Part shown: positions 16,815-40,103 of the stretch, piece by piece | Numbering within the stretch: the stretch's first letter is position 1 | Layout: each line of letters opens with the position of its first letter | Source: a virus | Length of the DNA stretch: 64,000 nucleotides | IMG/VR virus record: IMGVR_UViG_3300042502_001233 | Span: 19,125 to 83,124 of that record | Direction: 5' to 3' (one strand) | The notes under the pieces: model-generated | Seen by the model: the letters and a program-made list of their open reading frames with translations, nothing else | Database searches by the model: none | What the model was told of the DNA's origin: nothing | Made by a program: the position numbers and the translations under genes

Positions 16815-16887
16815 CACGGACCAAGAGAATCGAACTCTTTCCATTCGAGGTTTTGGAGACCTGATGCATGCCATTATGCTGGCCCGT
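16815..16887 (-). tRNA. tRNA-Trp(CCA)
   Basis: Loop CTCCAAA; T-arm AAGAG/TTCGATT/CTCTT. Confidence 0.6.
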
Positions 16888-16989: not shown

Positions 16990-16997
16990 AATTTAGG

Positions 16998-17083
16998 GTG
17001 AAAAGACGGGACTCGAACCCGCAAGGACATTTCTGTCATCTGGCTCACAACCAGACTCGCTACCGTTACGTACTACAATCACC
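16998..17083 (-). pseudogene. tRNA-His-like (GUG) with extra variable hairpin and mismatched acceptor; probable pseudo-tRNA
   Basis: Loop TTGTGAG, hairpin GACA-GAAA-TGTC, three acceptor mismatches. Confidence 0.35.
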
Positions 17084-17092
17084 ATGTATTTC

Positions 17093-17725
17093 TTATACTC
17101 GACCTAATCTCCAATTATCTGGAATTAAATCATCTTTTTTAATCTTTTTATTTTCACTACCATTTGTTACCCATCGACTACCAAATTGTGAATTTGTTTC
17201 ACCAACACCAGTACCTTTTTTTACTTTAGACATTAATTGTTTAGATTCATGACTATGGGTTTCACCTTCCCAATTTTTAATCCAATTTTTATCTCTAGTA
17301 CCAGTTAAATATTCTAGTGTTCTAGCTGTTGATATTTTATTACTTTTCTTTTCTACCCATTCTGGGTCTTGTCTTAAAAGCTTTTGTTTTTCGTTTGATT
17401 TAATCGCATTCAATTTTTGTTGTTCCGAGCTAAACCCACCAGTACCACCTTCTCTAAGATTCATACACATAGGGTTTTCCACCAACTCTTTAGTAACAAT
17501 TTCAATCTCTCTAAGAACCATTTCTTCTCTTGTAGGTAAAAATTCAAGTATTTCTTTTGTATGGTTTTCCACACCATGTTTTCTAATTGAATACCTAAGT
17601 CTTTTACCACTCCCCATATAACCATCTTCCAGGTTATATGCACTATGCATTCCTACATAATATCTTCCCGTTACATTACATGTTGTTTTATATATGTAAT
17701 GTATGTTTCTTTGTTTTCTTGCCAT
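17093..17725 (-). CDS. GIY-YIG homing endonuclease
   Basis: IHYIYKTTCNVTGRYYVGMHS...GYMGSG; paralog of 38029..38688. Confidence 0.8.
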   Translation of the reverse strand: MARKQRNIHYIYKTTCNVTGRYYVGMHSAYNLEDGYMGSGKRLRYSIRKHGVENHTKEILEFLPTREEMVLREIEIVTKELVENPMCMNLREGGTGGFSSEQQKLNAIKSNEKQKLLRQDPEWVEKKSNKISTARTLEYLTGTRDKNWIKNWEGETHSHESKQLMSKVKKGTGVGETNSQFGSRWVTNGSENKKIKKDDLIPDNWRLGRV

Positions 17726-17784
17726 TTCTCTTTCTTTCTAAATAAATATCTTAAGAAAGAGAAAAGTACAAAAAAGTTTAAGAG

Positions 17785-17859
17785 GGTGGTATATCGGGTT
17801 CGAACCGATGACCCTCGACACCACAAGCCGATGCTCTAACCAACTGAGCTAATACCACC
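17785..17859 (-). tRNA. tRNA-His(GUG) with G-1:C73
   Basis: 8-bp acceptor GGTGGTAT/ATACCACC, loop TTGTGGT. Confidence 0.75.
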
Positions 17860-17952
17860 ATGTTTAATTTACATTCACCGCATTTTTGCGGCGATTATCA
17901 CCGTTAACTTTAAAAATTATAAACTATGCGGTGATAATATTGTCTATTCGCC

Positions 17953-25166: not shown

Positions 25167-25226
25167 AATTTCTAATTTTTTGTTTATTATAAATATACCA
25201 CACTTTTAAAAAATGTAAAGTGTTTG

Positions 25227-25299
25227 TAGTTCTAATCGGACTCGAACCGATATCTCTCCGTTTTAGAGGCGGGTGTATTCACGTTAATACTATAGAACC
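25227..25299 (-). tRNA. candidate amber-suppressor tRNA, anticodon CUA
   Basis: The 73-nt hand fold fits canonical numbering. Acceptor is GGTTCTA/TAGAACT, D-stem GTAT/ATAC, anticodon loop CTCTAAA (34-36 = CUA), and T-arm ATCGG/TTCGAGT/CCGAT. The anticodon stem has C.A mismatches at both ends. Confidence 0.45.
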
Positions 25300-25562: not shown

Positions 25563-26178
25563 CTAAAGATAATTCAATAATTAAATCGTTAACAACTTTT
25601 TTTAACGCTTTAATGTCTTTTTTATCATTATAAATAACTTTACTAAAGTTAGTATAATCATCTAGATTAGTTTCTGAGATATGGTTTAAATCACGTAAGC
25701 TGTTCTCTCTAACACCCATTGGGTCGCCTTCCAGTCGAATTAAATAACCACCTTCTTTAAGGATATAGTCAGCTTCATTAACAAATCTAACATCTGGTAT
25801 CACAATAATTTTACCATTATTTAACTTAGTATCTAATTCTTCATTAAAGAATGATTTAACCCAAATATCAGTATCATAATTATCTCTAAATAAATCAGTA
25901 CCAACTAATTGTAATGTTTCACCAATAGTTTTATCAAATTGTTTAATAACTATATTTTTTTGGTCTTGAGTATAATTACGAATCTCATTGCAGAATGGTT
26001 TATTAGCTTCATGAGTTGTCGTCATACGTATACCACTAATTATTTCCGTAATTAACCTTAATTTATCAGCCAATGCATGTCTTTCTACTTTACCATGTAA
26101 TTGCTCAGCTAATAATTCAGCAAAGGTATCTTTACCACTACCTATTTTTCCACTAATACCTATAATTTTTTTTTTCAT
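25552..26178 (-). CDS. deoxynucleoside monophosphate kinase (T4 gp1-like)
   Basis: P-loop GISGKIGSGKDT (T4 gp1 GVKRSGKDT) and IVIPDVR...G.LIRLEG block. Confidence 0.65.
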   Translation of the reverse strand: MKKKIIGISGKIGSGKDTFAELLAEQLHGKVERHALADKLRLITEIISGIRMTTTHEANKPFCNEIRNYTQDQKNIVIKQFDKTIGETLQLVGTDLFRDNYDTDIWVKSFFNEELDTKLNNGKIIVIPDVRFVNEADYILKEGGYLIRLEGDPMGVRENSLRDLNHISETNLDDYTNFSKVIYNDKKDIKALKKVVNDLIIELSLDAR

Positions 26179-26181
26179 ATT

Positions 26182-29100
26182 TTACATTTTAAATGCTGTA
26201 ACATAAATAAATTTATCACTTTCTCTTAAAACCAAGTTATCAAAACCTATTTCTAAAAGTATTCTTTTAAATTCATCTTCATTATCTTTCCATTGATTGG
26301 CTGTTTCTGCAATCATGATTGGTTGCATAGTTCTCAATACTCTGTAAGCTTCTTTTAAATAATCTTCATAATTGCTACCCATAAGTGATAAACTAAAAAC
26401 AACAACATCTATAGATTCATCGTCTAAAGGTAATTTTGAAATATCACAAGCTATTACTGAATCATCAATGGCTACGTGGTCAAATGATAACACTTTGTTG
26501 GGTATTTCAGTTTTTAAAAGGTTTTCACCACATCCAAAATCACCAACAATATAATCTTTACGTTTAATTTGTTTAGCGATTTCTTTATATGGTATTTCTG
26601 ACCAAGTTTTTCTAGCTTCACGATACAAAGTATGATACTGATACCACTCAGTTGGGTCCTCGGTTAATCGTTTGTTAGTTGTAATAGAATTTGATACACC
26701 CCAGCGTTTATTCATTTGACTGAACTCACCATATTTAGGTAGGTTATGATTAACATAATTTGGATTCAAAGGTATTTTAAATTCTTCTCTATCAAACGTG
26801 ATAATCTCACCGTTGTTTAAACGATTAACCCATTCGGCCAACTCTTGTTGTGCTTCAAACACTAATCGTTCTCTTGAAGGTAGGAGATTTCTAGGAACAC
26901 GCCCATCAATTGCTAAATCACCCAAAGTTGCTTTAAATCTAATTATATTATGTCTACGTCTGTCCCAACTCCAAATATGTTCGCCAGCTGGTATAATAAC
27001 TTGTGGAATATAAATGTTAACTTTATCAAATTTAGAACCTTGTCTATTAACACGACCAACTAATTGGTCATATTCAGAACTGGTCCATGGAAGTACTATT
27101 GGTATCAATGTGTCACACACATATTGAATACCGTCTACACCAGTACCAACTGGTGCCGAACCAATTAAAACATCTAATTTACCCTTTTTAAAAGCTTCTA
27201 AACCACTTTTATCGTCACCAGTATAAAATCCTATACTAAAACCTAAATCTTTTACGAATTTACCTATAATATCGGTTAATTCAGTAACATAATATGTGTA
27301 TATTAAAGTCCCCCTTTTTATTTTATCTTTAACAGAATCAAGTTTAGTATTAATTAAAACTTTTTCGAACTCGCTAACAGCACCTTTAGGTATTGCTATG
27401 ATTTCATTAAACAAATGACTACCATCAGATTCTATGATTTCTTCGTTAACTGAAATACCATAATTAGGTTTATAACGAAGACCATATCTTGTTAATGCTT
27501 TATACATTTCAATACCATTTACAATGTTTTCTTTGGTTTCTAATTCGTTATGAGATTCACCTGTTAACAATTCAATTAATTTTTTAGGTTCTGTTAAATT
27601 GTTAATAATTGGTGTTGCCGACATAGCCATAACTAATAAATTTTCATTATCTTCTTTAGAGTTTATTATTAGTTTTTTAACAACATTCCTTCTAATAGAT
27701 TCTTCGTTATCACGCTGCTTAACATTTTGAACTTCATCTAAAATTATGTAATCAATCTGATTATATTTTAACAATTCAGAAACAATATATTCACCATCTT
27801 CTAACTGAAACGTTTCATAATTTAATACTAAATAATTATAAACATTTTCTTTTAATTTTATGTTATGTTTATGAACTAAATTATAATTAGAATTAACACC
27901 TTCTAATTCTTTCTTAACGTAAATCTGATTGTTAGTGAAATATTCATTTATGGACTCAACCCAGCCCTCAACAGTTGCATTATTACAAATTATTATAGTG
28001 TTTTTAGCACCAGCTAACCTACCAGCAAATATTGCAGATAAAGTTTTACCAGCACCAGTTCCAGACCAGTTACCGTATTTTTTCTCTTTAATTAAACGAT
28101 AACTAATTAGTTTTTGCATTAAGTTTGGCTGATGTTGAAAAATGTAATCACTTGGGGCGACTATTTTACAAACTTCTTCGTATTCACTAAAAAACCAGTC
28201 TTTAATTATTGTAAACCTTTCACCACCAGTTTCACCTCTTAAAGTATCAACATCTATTTGATTGTTAAGAACTTTATTCCACAATTTTTTTAATTGATTC
28301 TTTAACAAGAAATCAATATTTTCATCATCCAAAGAAGCGGTAACCATTGTATTATCATACATATGTAATTCTTTAATTGGGTCTAAAGGTGCTAATGACT
28401 CTGGTTCTTCTTCAGTAATTTCATCAACATTACCCTCAACTAAATCAACTTCTAAATTAGTTGGTTCGTTTAGAATAGAATCATTGTTGGTGTCATCGTC
28501 AGACTCATCGTTTTCTAACGTATCTAATATATCGTGAATTAATCTTTCTCTTTCCTCCGAACCAGCTTCAGAAGAAGTTAAAGAATCTAATGACCCTATT
28601 TGTTGTATTTTTTTAGCGAGATTGTTTGAATTTATTATGGTTATTAGTTCAACTGAGTCCATATAAATTAAATCTTTTTCTAAAGATTTAATAAAGTCTA
28701 ACATATAACGTTTATTCCAATAGTGACCATCACCTAAAGAACCTAACCAATCACCCATAGAAACCCACCCAGAATATTTGTATGTTTTTTCTGGCATTGC
28801 TGGGATGTTGTCTGGTTTTTTTATGTTTTTCCATTCACTATAAGATTTAAGACCTAAAGTTCTAGCATATTCTCTAGCTTCTTCAAATGGTAAAAACTCC
28901 CTAAAATTTGATAACTTACCATGACCTAACCAATCACTCCAAGATACCCAACCAGATTCTTTATAAACTTGAGATGGTGATGCTGGAATTTCATCTGGTT
29001 TAGCTGAAGATTTAGAAAACAACCTCCATTCTTTTTCACCAGTTAATTTTAAACTTCTAGCATATTCTCTAGCTTCTTCAAATGGTAGATAATCTCTTTT

Positions 29101-30078
29101 GTTACATGATATGTAATTAGTTCCTAACCAATCACCCAGCGACACCCAACCAGAATCTTTATAAACCCTATCTGGGGCACTAGGTATATTATTTGGTCTT
29201 AATTCAGATTTAATAAATTCAACCCATTCCTTTTGTCGGGTTATATTTAATTTTCTAACATATTCTCTAGCCTCTTCAAACTGTAAAAATTTTTTATCAA
29301 AATTTGATAACTTACCGTGACCTAACCAATCAACCCAAGATACCCAACCAGAATCTTTATATGTTTTATTTGGTGATTTAGGAATTTTAACATCATAATC
29401 GGTAGATTTTAAATATGTTCTAAACTCATTAGTGTTATTTAATTTTAAATTATGTATTATTTTCCTAGCTTCTTTAAAATCATAAAACTCATCAAAATCT
29501 TTTTTATAACCTAAAAAATCACCCCAAGATTTCCACCCATAATTTTTATACATTACGTGAGGTGAATAAGGTAAACCATTCACATTTGTTTTGTTTAAAT
29601 ATTCATGATATTTAGTTTGTGATGTTAAACCTAAAATTTTAACTACGTTTTTGGCCTCTTCAAAGGATAAATAATTTCTATTTTTTAAAGCAACGTAATT
29701 AGTTCCTAACCAATCACCCAGCGACACCCAACCAGAATCTTTATATATTTTATCTGGCGATGTAGGTATGTTGTGAGGCCTTAATTCAGACTTATAAAAA
29801 TTTTTCCAATCTTGTTGTGTTTTTAATCCTAAACTCTTAACAAAATTTTTAGCAATTTCAAAAGGTAGGTAACCGTCTTTTAGATTCACCGATGAACATT
29901 TAGTTTTATTTAACAAAGCATATGGTGTTATTAAATGTTCTGTATTAAACTTTTTATCAATAACCACCACTTTTTGGTTAGTATTGACATATTCGACTTT
30001 GGAATAATCATAATTATCGTTCCAATTACCACTATCTCTTAATTTTTGTAAAAACTCTTTTGTTTTATCAGTCATCAT
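26182..30078 (-). CDS. 1298-aa multidomain protein: about 8 tandem repeats of roughly 58 aa (ending YKDSGWVSxGDWLG) + SNF2/SF2 helicase + C-terminal SAM methyltransferase
   Basis: Walker A GTGAGKT, DEVQ box, SAT, helicase motif VI QLVGRVNRQGS; MTase motif I VGDFGCGEN. Confidence 0.8.
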   Translation of the reverse strand: MMTDKTKEFLQKLRDSGNWNDNYDYSKVEYVNTNQKVVVIDKKFNTEHLITPYALLNKTKCSSVNLKDGYLPFEIAKNFVKSLGLKTQQDWKNFYKSELRPHNIPTSPDKIYKDSGWVSLGDWLGTNYVALKNRNYLSFEEAKNVVKILGLTSQTKYHEYLNKTNVNGLPYSPHVMYKNYGWKSWGDFLGYKKDFDEFYDFKEARKIIHNLKLNNTNEFRTYLKSTDYDVKIPKSPNKTYKDSGWVSWVDWLGHGKLSNFDKKFLQFEEAREYVRKLNITRQKEWVEFIKSELRPNNIPSAPDRVYKDSGWVSLGDWLGTNYISCNKRDYLPFEEAREYARSLKLTGEKEWRLFSKSSAKPDEIPASPSQVYKESGWVSWSDWLGHGKLSNFREFLPFEEAREYARTLGLKSYSEWKNIKKPDNIPAMPEKTYKYSGWVSMGDWLGSLGDGHYWNKRYMLDFIKSLEKDLIYMDSVELITIINSNNLAKKIQQIGSLDSLTSSEAGSEERERLIHDILDTLENDESDDDTNNDSILNEPTNLEVDLVEGNVDEITEEEPESLAPLDPIKELHMYDNTMVTASLDDENIDFLLKNQLKKLWNKVLNNQIDVDTLRGETGGERFTIIKDWFFSEYEEVCKIVAPSDYIFQHQPNLMQKLISYRLIKEKKYGNWSGTGAGKTLSAIFAGRLAGAKNTIIICNNATVEGWVESINEYFTNNQIYVKKELEGVNSNYNLVHKHNIKLKENVYNYLVLNYETFQLEDGEYIVSELLKYNQIDYIILDEVQNVKQRDNEESIRRNVVKKLIINSKEDNENLLVMAMSATPIINNLTEPKKLIELLTGESHNELETKENIVNGIEMYKALTRYGLRYKPNYGISVNEEIIESDGSHLFNEIIAIPKGAVSEFEKVLINTKLDSVKDKIKRGTLIYTYYVTELTDIIGKFVKDLGFSIGFYTGDDKSGLEAFKKGKLDVLIGSAPVGTGVDGIQYVCDTLIPIVLPWTSSEYDQLVGRVNRQGSKFDKVNIYIPQVIIPAGEHIWSWDRRRHNIIRFKATLGDLAIDGRVPRNLLPSRERLVFEAQQELAEWVNRLNNGEIITFDREEFKIPLNPNYVNHNLPKYGEFSQMNKRWGVSNSITTNKRLTEDPTEWYQYHTLYREARKTWSEIPYKEIAKQIKRKDYIVGDFGCGENLLKTEIPNKVLSFDHVAIDDSVIACDISKLPLDDESIDVVVFSLSLMGSNYEDYLKEAYRVLRTMQPIMIAETANQWKDNEDEFKRILLEIGFDNLVLRESDKFIYVTAFKM

Positions 30079-30088
30079 TTATAAAATT

Positions 30089-30107
30089 TCTACAAAGATA
30101 CGAATTA
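30089..30107 (-). promoter_or_regulatory. class-1 -7 box upstream of the 1298-aa gene
   Basis: tacaaagatacgaat. Confidence 0.4.
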
Positions 30108-30155
30108 AAATTTACTTATTAAAGAAAAAGTCATATATTTATAATAAAAATTATT

Positions 30156-30296
30156 ATGAAGAAAGAAAATAAAATTATTGGAATTGCTGTTGATAAAGAA
30201 TTACTTAAAAAAGTTGACGCTGGAAACTATAACCGTTCTAAACTTATCGATGATTTGTTGACCAAACACTACGAAGAAAAAAAAGTTAAAAAATAA
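30156..30296 (+). CDS. small RHH-like protein (cassette ORF A)
   Basis: IIGIAVDKELLKKVDAGNYNRSKLIDDLLTKHY; a paralog is at 35083. Confidence 0.4.
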   Translation: MKKENKIIGIAVDKELLKKVDAGNYNRSKLIDDLLTKHYEEKKVKK

Positions 30297-30368
30297 TTCA
30301 TAAATTTATGACTTTTTTAAATTTCCACGATATTTATAAGTATATAACATTTATTAATACTCATTATC

Positions 30369-30530
30369 ATGGGAAGAAAAGCAAAAATACAAGAAGAAAA
30401 GAAAGATAAAATTAGTATCTCTATCTCAAAAGAAAACTACGAAGCAATGGCTTCAGAAGGTATCAATAAGTCACAACTAATCAATTGGTTGTTAGAACAA
30501 CACTTTAATTTATTAAATTATGGAAAGTAA
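30369..30530 (+). CDS. small RHH-like protein (cassette ORF B)
   Basis: ISISISKENYEAMASEGINKSQLINWLLEQHF, a CopG-like pattern; a paralog is at 35297. Confidence 0.4.
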   Translation: MGRKAKIQEEKKDKISISISKENYEAMASEGINKSQLINWLLEQHFNLLNYGK

Positions 30531-31185
30531 AATTTGTAATACGTGTAATACTGAATTACCATTAGATAATTTTTCTAAAGACAATGCAACTAAAGATAAA
30601 TTAAAAAATACATGTAAAAAATGTTCCTCAATTAAAAACGCTGAATGGAGAAAAAATAATAAAGAAAAAAGAAAACAATACCATAAAGAATATCATAATA
30701 AAAATAAAGAAAAATTAAAAGAGTATAATAAAAAGATTAACAATGAATTTAAAAAAACACATGGTATATCTAGACATACTTTATGGGATAGAGAGAATAA
30801 AGATAGACGTAAAGAATTATTGAAAATTAGACTAAAAAATCCAGTAGAGGCTTTAAAGTATAAATTAAGGAGTTCTTTAAATGCAATTTTTAGATATAAC
30901 GGTTATACTAAAAAACATAAATCACACGATATTATAGGTTGTTCATATGAAGAATTTAAACAACACCTTGAATCTCAATTTGAACCTTGGATGAATTGGG
31001 ATAATCGTGGGTTATATAATGGTGAGTTTAACTATGGTTGGGATATTGACCATATGGTACCATTATCAACGGCAACAACTGAAGAAGAGTTAATTAATTT
31101 ATGTCACTACACAAACACACAACCATTATGTAGTAAAGTTAATAGGGATATAAAGAAAAATAAAGTTGATTTTTATCCAACATAA
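30520..31185 (+). CDS. HNH homing endonuclease with N-terminal Zn finger and basic KEY-repeat region
   Basis: GWDIDHMVPL...NTQPLCSKVNRDIKKNK. Confidence 0.8.
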   Translation: MESKICNTCNTELPLDNFSKDNATKDKLKNTCKKCSSIKNAEWRKNNKEKRKQYHKEYHNKNKEKLKEYNKKINNEFKKTHGISRHTLWDRENKDRRKELLKIRLKNPVEALKYKLRSSLNAIFRYNGYTKKHKSHDIIGCSYEEFKQHLESQFEPWMNWDNRGLYNGEFNYGWDIDHMVPLSTATTEEELINLCHYTNTQPLCSKVNRDIKKNKVDFYPT

Positions 31186-31466
31186 CAGTCAGAATGTTCC
31201 AAGATACCTTTGGCTAGTTTGGCTCTGTCATCTTTGTTGTAATCACAAATAAGTTCTTTCCATTCAGCTCTGTGGTTAACTCTATCCTCAAAACATTCTT
31301 CTGGTGTTGTATAACCATATTTGTCTTTAAGTGTGTTGTATAGAAATATATCAGCAGCGGCTTGTGATGATGATTTGAATGTTAACCCATAATTATCTCG
31401 CCATATTTCAGCTAACGTATCTTTCGCGTGGCGAGCGTGTCCGATTACCAGAATTTTTTTAAGCAT
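31173..31466 (-). CDS. hypothetical protein with degenerate P-loop-like motif (VIGHARHAKDT)
   Basis: 97 aa; possibly a truncated dNMP-kinase-like paralog. Confidence 0.3.
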   Translation of the reverse strand: MLKKILVIGHARHAKDTLAEIWRDNYGLTFKSSSQAAADIFLYNTLKDKYGYTTPEECFEDRVNHRAEWKELICDYNKDDRAKLAKGILEHSDCYVG

Positions 31467-31520
31467 AATTTTATTTTTTATTAGAAGAAACCCTACCTTT
31501 TACAGTAGAGTTCCTTGGTT

Positions 31521-32459
31521 TTATTTAAGTTGGTTTAGCACTGCTGTGCTACCCACAACTTGTGGAACCCTTGGTGTGTTAGGGTCAACATCAATCCATT
31601 TTAAATATTCAATATACAACGGAGTGATTTCTCTTTTTCTAATTTGCATCGCTTCAGCTTGCGCTTTAGCTTCGATAATTGTTTGTTGTGCGTTACCGTT
31701 AGCAATTGCCACTTTCTTTCTAGCTTCGGCCTCAGCTGTAAGCGCTTTTTGGTCTTCCGCTTGTGCTTGTTGAATGGCTTTGGTTTTTGCAATAATGGTT
31801 TCTTGTAACGATTGTGGTGGAACGATGTTAGTCCTTAACTGTGACACAGTAAACCACTTGGATAAACGTTTGTTACATTCTGTTTTGATAGCAGCTTCAA
31901 ATAATTCACGTTCGTTGAAGATTTTGTCAACTTCCCATTTGTTAGCTACGTCATTTATAGCACCTACTATGGCTGTTTGTAACCAACCTTGTTCTACCGA
32001 TTTAATATCCAATCTTAAGTTTTGGAACATATCACCAACAGCACCAGCTTTTAATGAATAGTTAAAACTAGGGTGAATCGTAGCTGGGAAACCACCTTTG
32101 GTTATGACTTGTTGTTTTTCGTAACCAATTGTTTGTTGGAAGGTTGGGAATTCATAAAGCTGTTCAGCCCATGTGTTGAATACAACCCAACCAGTTTTGT
32201 ATTCATACTTTGACACACCACGTGCATCTCCAGTTAAGTTTACTTTGATACCTACGTTACCAGCGTCAACTCTACTTAATTTGTAAGGTTGTATAAACCC
32301 TACTACAAGGCCAATTACAAAAATGCTTATTGGTTTGATTAACCAACCGCTGTTGAACTCTGGTCCCCATTGTGTTTGTTTTGTGCTATTTTCCCTCGTG
32401 GAAAGAGCAATTACTATCGCTACTATTAGCGATAAGACAATAATAATTGTTGAAATCAT
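31521..32459 (-). CDS. SPFH/band-7 (prohibitin/HflK-like) membrane protein
   Basis: N-terminal TM followed by SPFH core and an Ala/Gln/Glu-rich coiled coil (AQAEDQKALTAEAEARKKVAIANG). Confidence 0.65.
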   Translation of the reverse strand: MISTIIIVLSLIVAIVIALSTRENSTKQTQWGPEFNSGWLIKPISIFVIGLVVGFIQPYKLSRVDAGNVGIKVNLTGDARGVSKYEYKTGWVVFNTWAEQLYEFPTFQQTIGYEKQQVITKGGFPATIHPSFNYSLKAGAVGDMFQNLRLDIKSVEQGWLQTAIVGAINDVANKWEVDKIFNERELFEAAIKTECNKRLSKWFTVSQLRTNIVPPQSLQETIIAKTKAIQQAQAEDQKALTAEAEARKKVAIANGNAQQTIIEAKAQAEAMQIRKREITPLYIEYLKWIDVDPNTPRVPQVVGSTAVLNQLK

Positions 32460-32464
32460 AAAAT

Positions 32465-32659
32465 TTATTTGTTTAAGTTATTAATTACGTATTTGTGTGT
32501 TTTGCTAATCATGTAAACCGTTGCTATTAGCGCTCCAATTGTGGTTATAAATTGGGTAGTTTCATTCATTGGTCTGGAGATTATGTATTCGGCAAGAATA
32601 TTCATACCTATTACCCATAATACCCAACCTAGAATCAATGTTAAAGGTGTTGTTTTCAT
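32465..32659 (-). CDS. small membrane protein
   Basis: 64 aa, two TM segments. Confidence 0.35.
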   Translation of the reverse strand: MKTTPLTLILGWVLWVIGMNILAEYIISRPMNETTQFITTIGALIATVYMISKTHKYVINNLNK

Positions 32660-32716
32660 ATTTTTAAGTTTTTTTTACAAATATACTAAATCTTTTTCAT
32701 ATATGCAAATAAAAAA

Positions 32717-32730
32717 GGGGCAAATGCCCC
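32717..32730 (-). terminator. terminator hairpin GGGGC-AAAT-GCCCC
   Basis: A-run before and T-rich after. Confidence 0.5.
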
Positions 32731-32735
32731 TCTTA

Positions 32736-33062
32736 TTATGATAGAAGTTCGATTCTTCCTCTGGATATATCTTTAAGACTTGCAGTCTTGTTGGTTATGT
32801 GGTCAACTACCACCCCATCCTTGACTCTGTACGTTCTTCGTTTGTCGCTTCTGTCACCTTTACCGATTTGTTCACGTCTCTCGTCAACGCTTTCTTGTAT
32901 GTGACCAGTTCTGTAATATTCGTTCACACGCTTTTTAAGCTCTTTTAAGGCATCTTCTTTGTTCTGGTGTTGATTCCTTCCATCTCGAACTACTTTGAGC
33001 CCTGTGGCCGCGTGTGTGACTACTACACATGAATCTGTGGTATTTTTGTGCTGACCACCAAA
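32736..33062 (-). pseudogene. release-factor fragment (GGQ domain + C-terminal domain) lacking a start; paralog of 36084..36767
   Basis: The in-frame translation FGGQHKNTTDSCVVVTHAATGLKV...NQHQNKEDAL...RTYRVKDGVVVDHITNKTASL begins immediately after the TAA of the upstream ORF. Confidence 0.5.
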
Positions 33063-33386
33063 TTAAACGGCACGATATTCATTAAGCATTTTTTTAATAT
33101 ATTCCCAACAAATATTTGCGTTTTTAAATTCAACATCACCAAATTGACATAATCTCGTGTATTCTTCATCAATTTCATTGGAAAATTTAGTGCTATATTT
33201 TTTCACATCATCTTTTGATAATTCGTAAAAACTAGGTAAACCATTTTTAACTAAAATATTAGAAAACGCTTCAATTCTAGTATCTTTATCACCACTATAA
33301 AAATGGTCAATCATCTGACAACGACTAGAAATAAGTTCTTCAACTACTTCTAAAGCTTTTATTTTATTTTTAATATCTTTTTTCAC
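33063..33386 (-). CDS. hypothetical protein downstream of the GHKL ATPase
   Basis: 107 aa, 3-nt gap to the ATPase gene. Confidence 0.4.
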   Translation of the reverse strand: MKKDIKNKIKALEVVEELISSRCQMIDHFYSGDKDTRIEAFSNILVKNGLPSFYELSKDDVKKYSTKFSNEIDEEYTRLCQFGDVEFKNANICWEYIKKMLNEYRAV

Positions 33387-33388
33387 GA

Positions 33389-34927
33389 TTAATAAATTAT
33401 AAATTTTCGTAACCTTTCACTAACTTTAATGAAATATTCGGTTAACATTATTTCTTTTTCAGTATCATTATAATACTCAATATCAGCTAAAGCCAACCCT
33501 AATGAAGCTAATAACTTAAAAGCTACATCTTTAGTTTCAAAGTTAGTTTTACTCATAAATTTAGACCAAAAAGGATGTTCTTGATTTATTTCTAAAATAT
33601 ATAGACCTTGTTCTTTAACCGTTTTAAACATCAAACCATTTTCACCTAATTTAATAAATCTATAATCAAAAAATTTATCATCTCTGACTCTAGTTTGATT
33701 TGGTTTACTTCCTGGTTTAACCGTTTCTTTCTTTTCAACTGGTGTCTCACGTTTTGTGTTCATACCCCTTTCTTTTTTAATATCAATAAAACGGTTATTA
33801 TTGATACTTTTAGTTGACTCATCTAACTCTTTTTTAACATCCTCAGTCAACTCTATATTCAATGTTTGGTCTTCTCTACTTCTGATTGTTTTAATATAAG
33901 GTTGGATAGCATTTCTACAAATATCTTTAAACCCTTGGTCAATATCATTTTTATCCTTTTCATGTATCATTTTATTGAAAGTTGACCCGAATAAGTCATC
34001 ACCACTACCATTAACAAATAATTCAATTCTAACACCATTAGAATACCCATCACCTATTTTACCCACAATACCTAAATCCAAACCAGCCCCAACTAAACGT
34101 TTATTTCTATAAATATAAAGGCCAGCATTACTACTATTTCTACCAATTTTTGTTGATAATGAAGTACTAACACCTTCTAAATTATAAACACTAAATTTAA
34201 TTTCATTCTCACCATAAACTATTTTTTCATTTGATGTGAGACATTTGGAGTAAAATTCTTTACGAAACATTGGGTCGAAAGATTCAACTAACTCATCGTT
34301 AACAAATAATTTAACATTTAATTCATCAATAAAATATTTGAAATATAAACTAAGTTTACTTTTTAAAATATCTTTAAAAATAGAAGGGTTTGAATTTGAT
34401 ACTTTATCAAGTTTATATAATTTAATAATAGTACCTGTATCAGAACCAACGTCTTCTTTAAACGATTCTAATTCTTCTGGAGTACCAGTTCTAATAGGAA
34501 TAATAAAAGTATTTTGGTCTAACAAAACCTCTAAATCATAAGTGGCAATATATAATGAACCATTTTCACTTTTTGTTATCACATCAAAAGCTTTACCGAT
34601 AGATAAGGCAGCAGCTTTAAGACCAGTACCATATGAACCTAAATCGAACTCTCTGTTTTTACCAGTTAAAGCACCAAGTTTAAATGCTTCTTTTAACGTT
34701 TCTAAATCCATACCACAACCATCATCACAAATTTTAATGTGGTCATACTCATCTTTGATTTTCTTAATTGTAATTTTAACGTTTTTTGAGTTAACGTTTG
34801 TGTCTAGTGAATTATCAATAATATCAGCAATTGCCGCATAATTATTGTAACCAGAATTTCTTAAAGTCGCTAAGAAATTGACATTTGGAGTTACATCCAA
34901 ACCATTTGTTTCGTTTAATTTTTCCAT
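33389..34927 (-). CDS. GHKL-superfamily (MORC/HATPase_c_3-like) ATPase
   Basis: Bergerat motifs ADIIDNSLDT, ICDDGCGMD, LGSYGTGLKAA. Confidence 0.65.
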   Translation of the reverse strand: MEKLNETNGLDVTPNVNFLATLRNSGYNNYAAIADIIDNSLDTNVNSKNVKITIKKIKDEYDHIKICDDGCGMDLETLKEAFKLGALTGKNREFDLGSYGTGLKAAALSIGKAFDVITKSENGSLYIATYDLEVLLDQNTFIIPIRTGTPEELESFKEDVGSDTGTIIKLYKLDKVSNSNPSIFKDILKSKLSLYFKYFIDELNVKLFVNDELVESFDPMFRKEFYSKCLTSNEKIVYGENEIKFSVYNLEGVSTSLSTKIGRNSSNAGLYIYRNKRLVGAGLDLGIVGKIGDGYSNGVRIELFVNGSGDDLFGSTFNKMIHEKDKNDIDQGFKDICRNAIQPYIKTIRSREDQTLNIELTEDVKKELDESTKSINNNRFIDIKKERGMNTKRETPVEKKETVKPGSKPNQTRVRDDKFFDYRFIKLGENGLMFKTVKEQGLYILEINQEHPFWSKFMSKTNFETKDVAFKLLASLGLALADIEYYNDTEKEIMLTEYFIKVSERLRKFIIY

Positions 34928-34991
34928 AAATAAAAATTATTTTATATTTAATCGTATTATTTTACGCATTCTAAATTTTTCAATTTAAAAT

Positions 34992-35036
34992 ACATGCAAA
35001 GATACTAACAATATCATCGCTTGTCAAGTTTTTTTC
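34992..35036 (-). promoter_or_regulatory. class-1 promoter (TTGACA-N17-TAGTATCTTTG on minus strand)
   Basis: Plus-strand atgcaaagatactaacaatatcatcgcttgtcaagttttttt. Confidence 0.5.
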
Positions 35037-35082
35037 TATTTATTTTTAATTAATTTTCAATATATTTATTAAAAACAAAACT

Positions 35083-35223
35083 ATGGACCAGAAAAAAATA
35101 AGCGTAGCATTATCACCAGAAGTTCTAAAACAATTAGAAGATAGTAACTATAATAAATCAAAATTAATCGATTCTTTATTAACTGAACACTTTAAAAAAG
35201 AAAATGAAAAAAAGTTAAAATAA
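35083..35223 (+). CDS. small RHH-like protein (cassette ORF A, paralog)
   Basis: ISVALSPEVLKQLEDSNYNKSKLIDSLLTEHF. Confidence 0.4.
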   Translation: MDQKKISVALSPEVLKQLEDSNYNKSKLIDSLLTEHFKKENEKKLK

Positions 35224-35296
35224 AAATCGCACTGGTACGACTTTTTTCTAATTTCTAGATATTTATAGATATAACAATTATCTAACACAAAATATC

Positions 35297-35464
35297 ATGG
35301 GAAGAAAAGCAAAACTACAAGAAGAGAAAAAAGGTAAACTATCAATCACCATCTCATCCGATAACTATGAAATACTAGTTAATGAAAACATCAATAAATC
35401 TAAATTAATCGATTGGTTATTAGAACAACATTTTAACTCTTTAAACAATGGGAAGGGTGCTTAA
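35297..35464 (+). CDS. small RHH-like protein (cassette ORF B, paralog)
   Basis: LSITISSDNYEILVNENINKSKLIDWLLEQHF. Confidence 0.4.
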   Translation: MGRKAKLQEEKKGKLSITISSDNYEILVNENINKSKLIDWLLEQHFNSLNNGKGA

Positions 35465-36071
35465 TGATGAACAGAAAAAAGCTAGAGCTGAATACCAAAA
35501 AGCTTGGCGAGAAGCTAATAAAGAACGTTTAGCTGAATGGCATAGAGAATATAGAAAGAATAACCCAGAAAAGAACAAAACCAACACTAAAGCGTATAGA
35601 GAGCGTCACCCAGAAAAAGCAAAAGAATCAACTAAAAAATATAAAGCGAATAATCAAGACAAAATTAAAGCTGCATCAATAGTGTATAGAGGTAGAAAAC
35701 TTGAATTACATAATATCAAAAAAGCTAATGACCCAGTGTATAATTTAAAATGTACTGTTAGAAGCGGTATATTAAAATCTTTCTCCAGAATCAACGCTAA
35801 GAAAAACAATAAAACAGTTGAAATTCTAGGATGTTCTTATGAGTTTTTAAAAGAACATATTGAATCAAAATTTGAACCATGGATGACTTGGGGCAACAAA
35901 GGTCTTTATAATGGTGAATTAAACTACGGTTGGGATGTAGACCACATCATACCACTGGATACAGCGGTGACCGAAGAAGATGTGATTAGACTTAACCATT
36001 ATACCAACCTACAACCACTTTGTAGTAAAATCAATCGAGATATTAAAAAAAATAACCCTAGTTACTACTAG
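35448..36071 (+). CDS. HNH homing endonuclease (paralog of 30520..31185)
   Basis: GWDVDHIIPL...NLQPLCSKINRDIKKN. Confidence 0.8.
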   Translation: MGRVLNDEQKKARAEYQKAWREANKERLAEWHREYRKNNPEKNKTNTKAYRERHPEKAKESTKKYKANNQDKIKAASIVYRGRKLELHNIKKANDPVYNLKCTVRSGILKSFSRINAKKNNKTVEILGCSYEFLKEHIESKFEPWMTWGNKGLYNGELNYGWDVDHIIPLDTAVTEEDVIRLNHYTNLQPLCSKINRDIKKNNPSYY

Positions 36072-36083
36072 GGTTATTTATTA

Positions 36084-36767
36084 TTATGAAAGAAGCTCTA
36101 TTTTACCTCTTAATATGTCTTTTAGACTAGCAGTCTTATTAGTGATATGGTCTACAACCATATCATCCTTTACACGATAAGTCCTTCTTTTATCGGCACG
36201 ACCACCTTCACCAATTTGTTCATTACGGTTTTCAATGGTTAATGAATCATGACCTGTTTTATAAAAGTTATTAACCCTTTGAGTTAATTCAGCAATCGCT
36301 GCTTCTTTATTTTGGTGTTGACTTCGACTATCACGTCTAACTTTAATCCCAGTTGCTATATGAGTTACAACAACACATGATTCAGTTTTATTCCTTTTTT
36401 GCCCACCGTTCCCAGTTCCTCTGGTTGTTTCCAAACGATATTCACTAGGATGTAATTCTACTTCCTTATAATCGTTTTCTTCCATAAGTGCTACGGTGAT
36501 TGAACTTGTATGAACCCTACCTTTTCTTTCGGTTGGTGGTACTCTTTGCCACCTATGTGAACCTACATGGTTTAAGAACACATTTTTAACATTATATCCA
36601 GATATTCAGATAGTTATCATACCATCTTTCTCATCAATAACTTTAGCTTCAAATGAATAATTTTTGCAAGCTTTTAAAAAAATATCTCGCATATCTTTAA
36701 TTAATAATTTTGAATCATCACCGCCTTCTGACGCTCTTAATTCTAATAAAATTTTATTTGTTTTCAT
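36084..36767 (-). CDS. truncated class-I release factor (RF1-like PxT motif PPT, GGQ, no domain 1) with one in-frame TGA
   Basis: MKTNKILLELRASEGGDDSKLLIKDMRDIF...DGMITI-TGA-ISGYNVKNVFLNHVGSHRWQRVPPTERKGRVHTSS...RGTGNGGQKRNKTES...SQHQNKEAA...RTYRVKDDMVVDHITNKTASL. It is collinear with RF1 domains 2-4. Confidence 0.6.
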
Positions 36768-37545
36768 TGTATTTTGGTCTATTTAAATTGCCTTCATATA
36801 TAACACCGTTTATTTCCCTTGTTGTTCCCCACATTGGTCTAAGATTCGATAAAGCGTTTACCACACTGGCTGGAGTTTCTGGTGGAAAACTAATAATTTG
36901 TTTTATATGGTCTATGTGCCATTCTCCATAATTATCCCATGTCATTCCGTCAGTAAATAAGTTTGTGATATGTTCTTTAAATTCTAAAGCTGAATAGCCT
37001 AACATATCTATGGTCTTACCAGTTTTTTTGTTATGTAAATCACGTAGCGAATTTTTTAATATTCGCCTCCAAGCTATTACGTGTGGGTTTTTTTGATTAT
37101 ATAATTTAGCGTTTTCTTTTATTTTTTCTTTATTATTTTTTCTATATTCTTTACCGTAAGCTGATTTTTTTTCACGATTATCTATTAAATATTGTTTGTC
37201 ATACGCTTTTTTCTTTTCTTTATTTAACGCAACGTATTCTTTATTTTTTTGTTTAACATATTCAATATTTTCTTTACGATATTCTTTTTGATAATTATTT
37301 CGTTTATCTTTATTTTCCAAACGGTGGTTAATAAAATACTCATTTAACTTTTCTTTATTCTTTTCCCTATACTTTGCATCGAGTAACTTCTTTTTTTGTA
37401 AAGAAACATCACTATGGATTTTCACATCAGGATATAACTCCCTTAACTGTTTAACCGTTAAATTGTGTGATTTTAAATGTTTGGTCGATAATGAAGATAA
37501 ATCTTTTCCACATACTGGACAAGTTACAAATGAAGATGGTTCCAT
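36754..37545 (-). CDS. HNH homing endonuclease with N-terminal Zn finger and basic repeat region
   Basis: CPVCGK...H..H; GEWHIDHIK...NLRPMW; overlaps the release-factor start by 14 nt. Confidence 0.75.
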   Translation of the reverse strand: MEPSSFVTCPVCGKDLSSLSTKHLKSHNLTVKQLRELYPDVKIHSDVSLQKKKLLDAKYREKNKEKLNEYFINHRLENKDKRNNYQKEYRKENIEYVKQKNKEYVALNKEKKKAYDKQYLIDNREKKSAYGKEYRKNNKEKIKENAKLYNQKNPHVIAWRRILKNSLRDLHNKKTGKTIDMLGYSALEFKEHITNLFTDGMTWDNYGEWHIDHIKQIISFPPETPASVVNALSNLRPMWGTTREINGVIYEGNLNRPKYNENK

Positions 37546-37934
37546 AATATTCTTTTATAATAAATATCACAAATAATTAAAAAAACCACAAATGGCAAAG
37601 AATTCCATTCGTTCTTAAAGATTTCTTTTGCGTTTTTACCCGTTAGTCAGATGCTAACAAATCCTAACCTATCTTCGGTTATTATTCAGTCGATGTTATT
37701 GTTCTTCGCTGTTTTAATGTAAATGTCGCGCATTTCACAAACCAACAGCTTCGCATCGGTTCCACCTTCTGCGTCTCGGATTTCTAAATTAATTTTTCCC
37801 ATTGGTTTTGTTTTTTGTTGTTTGTTATTAGTTTTAATAAAAAACCCCATATTGCTATGGGGTTTAGTATTTTACAGAATAGTTTTTGTTTTTTTTTCCT
37901 TAAAAATTTCAATTGCTGAATCTATTCTTCTAGT

Positions 37935-38020
37935 TGCGGAAGTAGGACTCGAACCTACAACACAGTGTTACTGCTCCTCTAGGTTATGAGCCTAGCATGT
38001 TTCCATTTCCACCATTCCGC
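37935..38020 (-). tRNA. tRNA-like gene, anticodon CAU, with a 20-nt hairpin variable arm (non-canonical)
   Basis: Anticodon stem CTAGG/CCTAG, loop CTCATAA, extra hairpin CAGT-AAC-ACTG. Confidence 0.4.
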
Positions 38021-38028
38021 GATGTATT

Positions 38029-38688
38029 TTATTTTCTACCCTTAACCCAACCTTCGTTCAGATAAGTTTCAAGGTTTTCTTTTTTTATCTTTTTGTTAGC
38101 ACCGTCTCTGGTTATCCAACACGTACCGTATTGACTATTTGTTTCACCAATACCAGTACCTTTTCTTTTTTCAGAGATTAAACGTTTAGATTCTTCAGCA
38201 TGATTTTTACCAGTCCAATCTAGATTTTTTAATTTATTCTGTCTGTATTCTTCATTTTCCCAAGCTATTTTATTAACATGAGAATTGAATCTACTTAACC
38301 AGTTTTCATCACCACCGAACTTTTCTTTTAAAACTTCGTCAGTTTTTTTTCTACCAGCTTTAACACATTTAAACATATGTTCTTCATTGATAAAACCACC
38401 ACCTTCACCACCAAGAGCCAAATTCATACATTTGGAATCTGAAATTAATTCTTTATTAACAATTTCTTTTTCTCTTTTAGCTAATTCTTCTCTATTTTCT
38501 AAAAATTCTAGAATCTCTTTTGTGTGATTTTCTTTACCGTATTTTCTAATAGAACGTCTTAATGTTTTACCACTACCTATATAACCATCTTCTAAGTTAT
38601 ACGTGCTATGCATTCCGATGTACCATCGTCCTGTTATATTACACGTTGTTTTATAAATGTAGTGTATGTTTTTTTCTTTTCTTGCCAT
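38029..38688 (-). CDS. GIY-YIG homing endonuclease (paralog of 17093..17725)
   Basis: IHYIYKTTCNITGRWYIGMHS...GYIGSG. Confidence 0.8.
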   Translation of the reverse strand: MARKEKNIHYIYKTTCNITGRWYIGMHSTYNLEDGYIGSGKTLRRSIRKYGKENHTKEILEFLENREELAKREKEIVNKELISDSKCMNLALGGEGGGFINEEHMFKCVKAGRKKTDEVLKEKFGGDENWLSRFNSHVNKIAWENEEYRQNKLKNLDWTGKNHAEESKRLISEKRKGTGIGETNSQYGTCWITRDGANKKIKKENLETYLNEGWVKGRK

Positions 38689-38746
38689 TTCAATTTCTTT
38701 AATAATAAATATCTCAGAAAACTGAAAAGTACAAAAAAGTCTCCAG

Positions 38747-38819
38747 TTGCGGGGGCACGACTCGAACGTGCGACCTCAAGGTTATGAGCCTTGCGAGCTA
38801 CCTACTGCTCTACCCCGCG
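38747..38819 (-). tRNA. initiator tRNA-fMet(CAU)
   Basis: CGCGGGGTAGAGCAGTAGGTAGCTCG...CTCATAA...; the C1.A72 mismatch is the bacterial initiator hallmark. Confidence 0.75.
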
Positions 38820-38823
38820 ATGT

Positions 38824-39234
38824 TAGTGCGGTAGGCTGGAGTGACCCAGCTATCTTAGTGAATGCTGTGAAGCAATCGTTCAGATAAAAACTTAATTTCT
38901 ACCGCGTGTGGCCAGAATCTCTGTTTTGCTTGTTTTTTCTCAAATGTAAAATTGCTTTTTTATTTGCTGAAAAGATTCTTTAACCATATAATGTATCTCA
39001 AGATGATAGTTCGCCTTGTTTTACGTTACTAACGTGCTCACGGCAGTGGATTTAAAGTGCCCTCACAACACTTCCAGTTTTATTCACTTTCGTGTGACTT
39101 TAAGAACTCATGATATTTCAATGTGGTTATTAAAATCTATGGGAGACCAGTTACTCCCTCTCTTAAATTTGTAGTTTTCTGTTTGCAGAAATCATCTTTC
39201 TAGATATAATGTCTATGAACGTATTGTAATAAAT
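38824..39234 (-). other. about 410-nt noncoding, hairpin-rich leader between a class-1 promoter and tRNA-fMet
   Basis: No ORF above 30 codons; contains nested stems GCGGTAG...CTACCGC and GCTGG-agtgac-CCAGC. Confidence 0.3.
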
Positions 39235-39280
39235 ATATGCAAAGATACTAATATTTCACTCTCATGTCAAGTTTTTTTTT
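39235..39280 (-). promoter_or_regulatory. class-1 promoter (TTGACA-N17-TAGTATCTTTG)
   Basis: Plus-strand atatgcaaagatactaatatttcactctcatgtcaagttttttttt. Confidence 0.5.
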
Positions 39281-39312
39281 AACTTTTTTAAATTTTTTTT
39301 ATAAACCCTTGA

Positions 39313-39522
39313 TTATGAGGGTAATTTGTCACCAAATTGTTCTACAATTAGATACGTACCTTGTTTATTATCTGTAGAATGTACCACGTTAAGAACTCTA
39401 TAATAAACATTTATATGCCAAACGTATTCATCGCGTCTTGGTATTGATGATAATTTTATGTTGGATTTTATAATATTCCATTTACTATCTAACAGACTTA
39501 CTGTATATTTTTTACTAAACAT
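39313..39522 (-). CDS. hypothetical protein
   Basis: 69 aa. Confidence 0.3.
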   Translation of the reverse strand: MFSKKYTVSLLDSKWNIIKSNIKLSSIPRRDEYVWHINVYYRVLNVVHSTDNKQGTYLIVEQFGDKLPS

Positions 39523-39724
39523 ATTAATAATTTATTTTTATTGATATTTATATTTGTTATAACACTTTAAATAATTCTACAAAATCATGAAAAACAAAGG
39601 ATGCGGTTGCAAACCACCTAAAAGATAATCAAATTATCTTAAAAAATTAAACCCCACGTAAAGCGATTTACAGTGGGGTTTTTATTTCTCACTCATTGGT
39701 TTATTTTGAGCAGAATCATTACTG

Positions 39725-40103
39725 ATGGTGGAGTTATGGGGAATCGAACCCCAGTGTTGCATATTCTTCAAAAGCTTTCTACATGTTTATCTAGTTTCTA
39801 ATTCTAGCAAAGTTGTGCTGCGTTATTTATCCCGATGGAAGTGCAGCGACCATCGTTCCTTTTTTTACAACTAGGAAGTTGGTTCTTGGTGATTTATCAC
39901 CATCAAGTGGAATTACCACTATTAGCTATAATTAGGCTACAGCTACCTCTCCTGCGAAACTGAATGCAGCTTCGTTAAGGAAATTTTCAGAAACGATGAA
40001 ATCGTTGTCAATTCAATTTTTTAATAGACAGATTAAAGTGCTTCCAATCTAGCACTACATGCTTACGATTTACGACTATATCCAGTCAATACCGTTTAAC
40101 CCC
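39725..40103 (-). ncRNA. ssrA: tmRNA-like RNA (ssrA candidate), about 379 nt
   Basis: The 5' end GGGGTTAAACGGTATTGACTGG pairs with the 3' end (GGGGTTA / TAACTCC, one G.U). The 3' end has T-arm TGGGG-TTCGATT-CCCCA, acceptor strand and an encoded CCA. There is an internal candidate tag ORF ...GCAGGAGAGGTAGCTGTAGCCTAA (AGEVAVA*). A class-1 promoter lies about 50 nt upstream. Confidence 0.5.

Follow-up and report, generated by a model that had tools for sequence, protein, structure and literature searches.

A predicted RF1-type release factor gene behind an in-frame UGA in a putative very large phage, and a family of relatives apparently controlled by stop codon bypass

The stretch of viral DNA analysed here (64,000 nucleotides, positions 19,125 to 83,124 of IMG/VR record IMGVR_UViG_3300042502_001233; hereafter the window) contains on its minus strand a gene for a predicted class-I release factor, whose reading frame is interrupted by a single TGA codon. 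We refer to this gene as copy B and to a second, broken release factor gene in the same window as copy A. Our conclusion, which we hold to be probable, is that copy B specifies a working RF1-type factor behind a leaky UGA gate, with its output tied to termination capacity. Comparison with homologous genes suggests that copy B belongs to a large family, present in phages and bacteria, of recoding-controlled RF1-type genes. No prior description of this family was found in the literature covered, with most subscription journals lying outside that coverage. The gene and its main motifs are located as follows.

36084..36767, minus strand: release factor gene copy B, 227 codons including one in-frame TGA; RF1 domains 2 to 4, no domain 1
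36606..36608, minus strand: in-frame UGA, codon 54 of copy B, in the context AUC UGA AUA (TCA on the plus strand)
36531..36539, minus strand: PPT tripeptide, the RF1-type PxT 'anticodon', within HRWQRVPPTERKGRVHTS
36399..36407, minus strand: GGQ motif of peptidyl-tRNA hydrolysis, residues 121 to 123, invariant in both family alignments

Copy B starts at an ATG (36767..36765), and codons 1 to 53 (36767..36609, minus strand) lead into the TGA. Codons 55 to 227 (36605..36087) follow in the same frame and end at a TAA (36086..36084), and the TGA at codon 54 is the sole interruption. A first-pass annotation of this DNA had described two same-frame open reading frames (ORFs) that are split only by this TGA, and this is indeed what the sequence contains, with 53 codons before the stop and then 173 codons to the TAA. 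The annotation was also right that expression would need read-through and not a frameshift, as the same frame resumes after the UGA. Among the 86 ORFs of the window (18,553 codons, 241 of them TGG), only copy B is a TGA-interrupted ORF with a long upstream coding segment. Because it is the only such ORF and because the position of the stop recurs in nearly all homologues, its broken-by-TGA structure is far beyond chance.

When any residue is allowed at the stop, the 227-residue product matches the Pfam domains PCRF and RF-1 (59 and 78 bits with Trp at that position), the profile matches on which the initial assignment to the release factors had been made to depend. Among the NCBIfam models prfA leads with 186 bits (profile positions 104 to 333 of 347), followed by prfB with 104 and prfH with 77 bits. 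The scores of 186 and 179 bits against the full-length prfA models TIGR00019 and NF001859 are below both cut-offs (400 and 423 bits). Domain 1 appears to be absent from the product, because the prfA profile is matched over positions 104 to 333 of 347 only. Of the residues with which E. coli RF1 contacts the stop codon, whose roles have been described (PMC3974865), the equivalents of Gly120, Gln185, Thr190, His197, and Thr198 are kept in copy B, and the position of RF1 Glu123 is Asp in every family member examined. A phmmer search of the PDB gave T. maritima RF1 (residues 85 to 314) as the best match, with an E value of 1e-39, compared to 1e-22 for RF2 and 1e-10 for PrfH. The AlphaFold model of P0001, a protein that is 84% identical to the copy B product, has a mean predicted local distance difference test score of 79 and superposes best on ribosome-bound RF1 (TM 0.68, 34 to 35% identity). 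Altogether, the copy B product can be predicted to be an RF1-type class-I release factor made of domains 2 to 4. The first-pass annotation had already proposed a factor of the RF1 type that has a PxT motif and lacks domain 1, and the leading prfA score, the presence of PPT and GGQ, and the start of the profile match at position 104 bear this out. Domain 1 is dispensable for release and a truncated RF1 works in vivo, according to Baranov (2006, PMC1586002, citing Mora 2003).

As currently curated, the prfA, prfB, prfH, and arfB families do not include copy B. It differs from RF2 in its tripeptide, which is PPT and not SPF, and in a prfB profile score below that of prfA. When it is compared with ArfB/ICT1, residues 101 to 134 match alone (24 bits, with a cut-off of 100), and a full domain 2/4 with PxT is present. 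The PrfH model (TIGR03072) gives 76.8 bits for copy B and 41 to 89 bits for bacterial members of the family, at a cut-off of 166.65, and no match to RtcB was found among ten window ORFs near copy B (six in the cassette described below and four flanking it). The likeness to PrfH or ArfB put forward in the first-pass annotation therefore applies to the size of the protein and not to its sequence, which falls far short of the PrfH cut-off and retains the residues used for decoding by RF1. We found no dedicated NCBIfam model for the copy B family.

The stop-dependent gate appears to be a constant feature of this family. We assembled 121 distinct homologues from IMG/VR phages, four complete phages of 634 to 735 kb, and bacterial genomes, and in 114 of the 121 a stop has to be bypassed within the first ~50 alignment codons. 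In IMG/VR, 448 loci encode a relative; the best 80 of these 448 were examined for an interruption, which was found in 78. In the complete phage genomes LR756504, LR745206, LR756501, and LR756502, the gene is interrupted at the same places by one in-frame TGA or by two, and a 274-kb JGI contig carries an interrupted homologue too. The bacterial members, taken from a scan of one genome per prokaryotic species, are located on the chromosomes of Minicystis rosea, Nannocystis exedens, Archangium gephyra, Thiobacillus denitrificans, and Novimethylophilus (N. kurashikiensis), among others. They are 222 to 235 residues long and have the sequence HRWQRVPPTE(K/R)RGRVHTS and GGQ. No neighbour gene was conserved across 37 bacterial loci. 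Protein searches returned two kinds of hits, namely proteins of ~225 residues on short contigs, with W at the stop column, and proteins of 160 to 184 residues on long contigs, starting just past the stop column. At the DNA level the W is a TGA translated with code 4 (as in L002), and the missing N terminus of the 'short' proteins precedes them in the same frame across a TGA (as in L001). Gene callers currently annotate family genes as cut-down fragments of 160 to 184 residues. The 114 interrupted members are distributed over the following forms.

One TGA read-through: 48 of 114
Two TGA read-throughs: 19 of 114
TGA plus TAG read-through: 2 of 114
TAG read-through only: 1 of 114
+1 frameshift at CTT TGA: 26 of 114
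+1 frameshift at CTT TAG: 17 of 114
TGA read-through plus frameshift at TGC CTT TAG C (L027): 1 of 114

The last form is found in IMGVR_UViG_3300017700_000931 (L027; 362 kb, release factor gene at 10001..10664), where UGA read-through and a +1 shift occur in one gene. Counted as distinct contexts, there are 77 for read-through (74 TGA and 3 TAG) and 48 for frameshifting (30 CTT TGA C/G and 18 CTT TAG C). All 48 frameshift contexts have CTT before the stop, which is followed by C in 42 of them and by G in 6. A GGAG-like tetramer is present at most 12 nt upstream in 34 of the 48, a number that is inflated by high GC, and the phage frameshift versions are without such an element. The bacterial loci L109, L116, L128, L141, L147, and others have the complete prfB-like cassette, with either TGA or TAG. 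The bypass sites cluster at two columns of the alignment. The first corresponds to the conserved Trp of cellular RF1 (KGW/RRW), and the second to a position in a beta-strand, occupied by Phe in both T. maritima RF1 and the uninterrupted family members. At the column of the copy B stop, most relatives have a stop codon, and the uninterrupted members and T. maritima RF1 have F. Read-through and frameshift forms, as well as UGA and UAG forms, swap within clades at the same sites.

The regions on both sides of the stop appear to form one selected protein. The ratio of nonsynonymous to synonymous substitution rates has the same value, 0.23, in the 45 codons that precede the site (85 pairs) and in codons 46 to 100 (138 pairs), and no conserved start codon after the stop was found among the homologues. 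Because of these equal ratios and the lack of a conserved start, the gene probably encodes one protein and not two. In genes with paired TGAs, the segment between them is 12 codons long and contains no start codon. The context of the stop appears to be selected as well. The stop of the 77 read-through contexts is followed by A in 42, C in 26, G in 8, and T in 1; about 20% T would be expected, which gives a p value of about 7e-7 for 1 in 77. When Leu follows the stop, it is encoded by CTN in 26 of 27 cases (p about 3e-8), compared to a background in these genomes in which 54% of the Leu codons, and 62% of those directly after TGG, are TTA or TTG. As the sequences are related, both p values are indicative only. 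The synonymous variety after the stop (CTA, CTG, CTC, and CTT) indicates that C has been kept repeatedly. In E. coli, termination at UGA is poor when C or A comes next, and the tRNA that usually misreads UGA is tRNA-Trp. The stop context thus seems to have been selected to terminate poorly.

The window itself fits the standard code, with 86 ORFs that cover 87% of it and end in TAA (74), TGA (7), or TAG (5), and some of the TGA stops sit in typical ATGA overlaps. We counted in-frame stops that are bridged by an uninterrupted homologue from another locus, using greedy gene sets, in a pool of 87 sequences (the fetched loci and the window; 1.46 Mb, 2,240 ORFs). A TGA was spanned in 69 ORFs, 66 of which are the release factor gene, compared to 11 ORFs for TAG and 25 for the TAA control. 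Searches for a tRNA(UCA) were negative for the window, for 47 related loci (several with 20 to 43 tRNAs), and for the complete genome LR745206. The complete-genome code test was made on LR745206, a phage that bears a homologue, and not on the window's own phage. This genome (634,780 bp) has two TGAs in its release factor gene and 59 tRNAs, which include a single tRNA-Trp(CCA) and no suppressors. Coding regions cover 94.4% of it with the standard code and 94.5% when TGA is taken as sense; TGA ends 176 of its 902 ORFs and UAA makes up 72% of the stops. Because no tRNA(UCA) was found and the in-frame TGA is confined to the release factor gene, the data point to TGA being an ordinary terminator in these genomes and to the bypass being a device specific to this gene, not genome-wide recoding. 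Both signs of a changed code that the first-pass annotation had named, a tRNA with anticodon UCA and in-frame TGAs in other conserved genes, were thus missing from the material searched, and copy B is the sole case in the window.

Based on these results, we propose that the full-length factor would be made only when the ribosome passes the UGA at codon 54 by inserting an amino acid. This would most likely be Trp, through third-position misreading by a host or phage tRNA-Trp(CCA), and the alignment of the first recoded column with the conserved Trp of cellular RF1 is candidate support for this. The fraction of ribosomes that pass would be set by the competition between RF2 and tRNA-Trp, and the output of the factor would rise when UGA recognition is slow, meaning that termination capacity is short. 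The factor may then take over UAA and UAG, freeing RF2 for UGA. UAA is by far the commonest stop (74 of 86 in the window, 72% in LR745206). In relatives with UAG read-through or a UAG frameshift, this would amount to direct self-regulation by the RF1-type product, and in UGA versions such as copy B to cross-regulation by RF2. The likeness to prfB regulation seen in the first-pass annotation is therefore upheld, together with its remark that an RF1-type product is not expected to read UGA. By established work on truncated RF1, a factor without domain 1 would be independent of RF3. Within this scheme, the insertion of Trp, the response of the gate to release factor activity, and the UAA/UAG specificity of the product are what we infer. 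Selenocysteine at the UGA was set aside, as the sites are Trp or Phe in homologues, some relatives have UAG at the same site, and others frameshift.

Several points weigh against this proposal. Feedback by an RF1-type product cannot act on a UGA gate, and copy B could therefore be a case of RF2 cross-regulation at best, or equally a fixed attenuator. Among close bacterial relatives, the stop in the same cassette can be either UGA or UAG, which is a poor fit to a logic in which the sensor is matched to the product. With two consecutive UGA gates, a situation found in copy A and many relatives, very little product would be expected if the leakage at each is a few percent. RNAalifold, run on 18 diverse sequences, gave no consensus around the stop that could serve as a stimulatory RNA structure. 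ARAGORN could miss an atypical suppressor tRNA, and 64 kb of this phage are visible. The copy B allele itself may be weakened or somewhat relaxed, based on two substitutions: residue 67 (36567..36569, minus strand) is His in copy B and Glu in at least 90% of the family and in the three cellular RF1 proteins examined (E-x-G-x-H-R), and residue 29 (36681..36683, minus strand) is Phe in place of an invariant Tyr.

We consider it unlikely that the leaky stop is a fixed attenuator that senses nothing and holds a potentially toxic factor at a very low constitutive level. It is true that overproduction of RF2 reduces the fitness of B. subtilis, as does that of RF1 though less strongly (PMC12421855), that an RF1-type product cannot act on UGA, and that two UGAs in series imply a very low output. 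However, a weak promoter or start site would do the same, whereas here a stop-based device has been kept through changes between read-through and frameshifting and between UGA and UAG, with sites at offsets 30 to 47, and the bacterial members use the complete prfB-type cassette, the known purpose of which is sensing. The alternation of UGA and UAG gates in relatives with near-identical decoding loops (L113/L114 versus L117/L119) could also be understood if the product had a broadened specificity and read UGA as well as UAA and UAG, with prfB-style feedback from either gate. The invariant Asp at the position of RF1 Glu123, a contact for the first base of the stop codon, and a basic pair after PPTE that is not present in cellular RF1 would fit with this. 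As the PxT tripeptide and the third-base residues are of the RF1 type, sequence and fold are nearer to RF1 than to RF2, and Glu to Asp is a conservative change, we find such self-regulation quite improbable. There is a similarly slim chance that the family represents a third kind of bacterial and phage class-I release factor, a stress-induced and RF3-independent back-up that is produced solely under slow reading of stop codons and acts at all three stops. If true, this would explain the interchange of UGA and UAG gates among close relatives, and huge phages would use the factor to control termination in the infected cell.

In our opinion it is very unlikely that we are dealing with a timed code switch, where a phage suppressor tRNA would decode TGA as Trp at late stages of infection and the RF1 gene would simply be among the late genes so recoded. 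TGA-recoded phages do carry RF1 genes (Borges et al. preprint), and the window, where part of the genome is visible, has a suppressor tRNA, though for UAG. On the other hand, the window, the 47 loci, and LR745206 were searched for a tRNA(UCA) and gave none, TGA ends 20% of the LR745206 ORFs, and translation with TGA as sense gains no coverage. In addition, the in-frame TGAs near the release factor gene are confined to that gene, and the RF1 gene of the published TGA-recoded phages is written in the standard code. We give hardly any credence to a sequencing error, to a pseudogene, or to the separate translation of two polypeptides. The window does hold a genuinely broken copy of this gene, and copy B has two unusual substitutions. 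However, the stop recurs in over 100 assemblies that were made independently in different projects, both sides of it are under selection of equal strength, and the base beside the stop is under selection. The possibility that the TGA is simply a sequencing error, with which the first-pass annotation thought its own reading might fall, fails for a stop that is conserved in independent assemblies and under selection. Two polypeptides are difficult to reconcile with a 12-codon piece between the TGAs that has no start, and with no start being conserved after the stop. The gate thus appears to be a built-in translational control and not damage.

With a GC content of 31%, 16 tRNA genes, a tmRNA, a CCA-adding enzyme, DnaJ, and DNA and RNA ligases, the window looks like part of a very large phage, and relatives of copy B sit on IMG/VR viral contigs of up to 435 kb. 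A nucleotide search of the GenBank phages with window 30000..40000 matched one tRNA and nothing else, and therefore there is no close cultured relative. The closest relative is L003, with 93 to 97% nucleotide identity to the window, and its release factor gene is intact. The window contains three release factor pieces, the intact copy B and two remnants of the resident copy A.

37608..37802, minus strand: copy A 5' remnant, 92.6% identical to the intact L003 gene; the match ends at 37608
32736..33059, minus strand: copy A 3' remnant, from GGQ to the stop codon; RF-1 domain, 66 bits
33060..37607: cassette of 4,548 bp that replaces 159 bp of copy A (the decoding-loop part, with the conserved segment coding for HRWQRVPPTE); absent from L003
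36754..37545, minus strand: HNH-like ORF, 263 residues, directly 5' of copy B with a 14-nt overlap with its start; C-terminal H-N-type motif
35448..36071, plus strand: second HNH-like ORF, 207 residues, convergent with copy B
33389..34927, minus strand: GHKL-type ATPase, 512 residues, in the cassette; Pfam HATPase_c_3, 76 bits

In a nucleotide comparison, window 38035..37608 corresponds to the tRNA-Met gene and the first ~63 codons of the L003 release factor gene, and window 33059..31469 to the same gene from GGQ on and the next gene, SPFH/Band 7. The 3' remnant is collinear with L003 from 10349 onwards, at 93% identity. The 5' remnant holds two in-frame TGAs (37688..37686 and 37649..37647), which recur in L001, L003, and others. 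The second of these UGAs lies in the loop of a 5-bp hairpin, GUUAG-N7-CUAAC (window 37640..37656, minus strand), seen in L001, L003, L004, and L013; the hairpin is limited to one subclade and is not supported by the consensus fold. Copy B is part of the cassette, together with the two HNH-like ORFs, two small RHH-like ORFs, the GHKL ATPase, and a 107-residue ORF, and it has 77.5% nucleotide identity to the L003 release factor gene. The first-pass annotation had reported a decayed second copy at 32736..33062; this copy is real, although its other half (37802..37608) had been missed. The idea that the two release factor copies bracket the cassette has to be replaced, as copy B lies inside the cassette, at 33060..37607, which split copy A. 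The HNH-like ORF at 36754..37545 is a putative homing endonuclease, and a homing endonuclease cassette may have inserted itself into the gene where conservation is highest, supplying a replacement allele at the same time. A Pfam scan gave no significant match for this ORF or for the one at 35448..36071. The latter and the ORF at 30520..31185 share the C-terminal motif GLYNGE.NYGWD.DH..PL...N..N.QPLC...N. A second block that is missing from L003, window 25573..31176, holds a 1,298-residue SNF2-helicase/methyltransferase fusion (26182..30078), a 208-residue ORF, and the HNH-like ORF 30520..31185. Between the two tRNA-Met genes there is an ORF at 38029..38688 (minus strand) that is weakly GIY-YIG-like, and L003 has a different, shorter insert at that place. 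The region around copy A looks like a hotspot of mobile endonuclease genes.

Several other translation genes are found in the window.

37933..38021, minus strand: initiator-like tRNA-Met, 89 nt, immediately 5' of the resident release factor gene; this arrangement is conserved
39726..40103, minus strand: tmRNA gene, Rfam RF00023, 63 bits; not reported by ARAGORN
25226..25299, minus strand: amber suppressor tRNA, anticodon CUA, downstream of the release factor gene
16814..16887, minus strand: tRNA-Trp of the phage, anticodon CCA; could decode the UGA as a near-cognate tRNA

An Rfam scan of the whole window returned only tRNAs and the tmRNA, and no recoding element. The tmRNA gene belongs to the cluster of translation genes around the release factor gene, and in several relatives, too, a tmRNA is located 5' of that gene. 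The tRNA-Met genes at 37933..38021 and 38746..38819 (minus strand) are both initiator-like (5' CGCGG, C1 opposite A72), and the 89-nt one has a long extra arm. Over-long tRNAs beside normal twins are also seen for tRNA-His (16996..17084) and tRNA-Ile (16641..16725). An ORF between two tRNA-His genes (17093..17863, minus strand) seems to run upstream across a TAG into a tRNA, which is probably an artefact of a translated tRNA. The D arm of the phage tRNA-Trp(CCA), inspected for a Hirsh-type change, is atypical and its numbering unreliable. In nearly all close relatives (L001, L003-L034), a tRNA(CUA) lies 1.5 to 3.5 kb downstream of the release factor gene; its acceptor has G1-U72 and A73. No convincing in-frame TAG genes were seen near the release factor gene or the tRNA(CUA). 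An amber suppressor tRNA beside an RF1-type factor that would compete with it for UAG is an odd pairing and a puzzle.

Release factor genes are the textbook example of genes that gauge their own product through recoding, which so far has been limited to RF2 and to frameshifting. The present family appears to use UGA read-through, UAG read-through, and frameshifts at CUU UAG C and CUU UGA C, sometimes two per gene, and it spans the largest known phages and cultivable Myxococcota. It may provide naturally occurring, matched switches of the read-through and frameshift kinds for the study of termination versus bypass, as well as a testable idea on how giant phages manage termination capacity. It also calls for a correction in how gene callers handle these genes.

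According to a 2016 review (PMC5009743), same-frame read-through in RF2 genes was once predicted but never found, and a UAG/RF1 counterpart was also unknown. A 2025 survey of more than 12,000 genomes judged programmed frameshifting unlikely for prfA and found no UAG in any prfB motif (PMC12421855); in our family, UAG is present in 18 of the 48 frameshift contexts, compared to 0 of 8,164 prfB motifs in that survey. The closest cellular analogue is the autoregulatory +1 frameshift of prfB (SD-like element, CUU UGA C). What it has in common with copy B is a class-I release factor gene with an early in-frame stop that is bypassed and, across the family, a preference for C after the stop. Bacterial and some phage relatives of copy B use CTT TGA C literally, the bacterial ones often with a GGAG-like tetramer. 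Copy B, in contrast, has AUC UGA AUA and continues in frame 0, and it does not contain a prfB-type cassette. Its product is of the RF1 type, and the site is in domain 2, at aromatic/Trp positions, whereas that of prfB is in domain 1. Read-through of a leaky UGA in a phage gene is well known from the coat extension protein A1 of Qbeta, where the UGA is decoded by tRNA-Trp and the same frame continues. The UGA-to-Trp read-through proposed for copy B would be of the same kind, which makes Qbeta the closest analogue among phages. Qbeta, however, makes two useful products, while the short 53-residue product of copy B has no evident use and the gate is in the gene of a translation factor.

A virus-encoded termination factor gene translated through internal stops has been described in Mimivirus and Megavirus, where a class-I release factor gene combines one read-through with one frameshift (Jeudy et al. 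2012, PMC3521657), a combination that has been described as unique to Mimivirus-type release factor genes. This is the closest viral analogue. L027 likewise joins UGA read-through with a +1 shift. The Mimivirus factor is of the eukaryotic/archaeal eRF1 type, from an amoeba virus, whereas our family is of the bacterial RF1 type and occurs in phages and bacteria. PrfH resembles the family in its length of ~200 to 230 residues, its lack of domain 1, and the presence of GGQ (PMC1586002). It differs in its altered decoding residues and conserved partner RtcB, while the copy B family keeps the RF1 residues and has no conserved neighbour. In the literature on huge and recoded phages, RF1 and RF2 genes are listed and interruptions are not mentioned. 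The 'Jade' phages (Borges et al., 10.1101/2021.08.26.457843) also have a phage RF1 together with suppressor tRNAs and translation genes. In those phages the standard code is used for RF1 itself, and the reassignment of TGA, with a UCA tRNA, concerns other genes, whereas in the phages described here the release factor gene alone holds the TGA.

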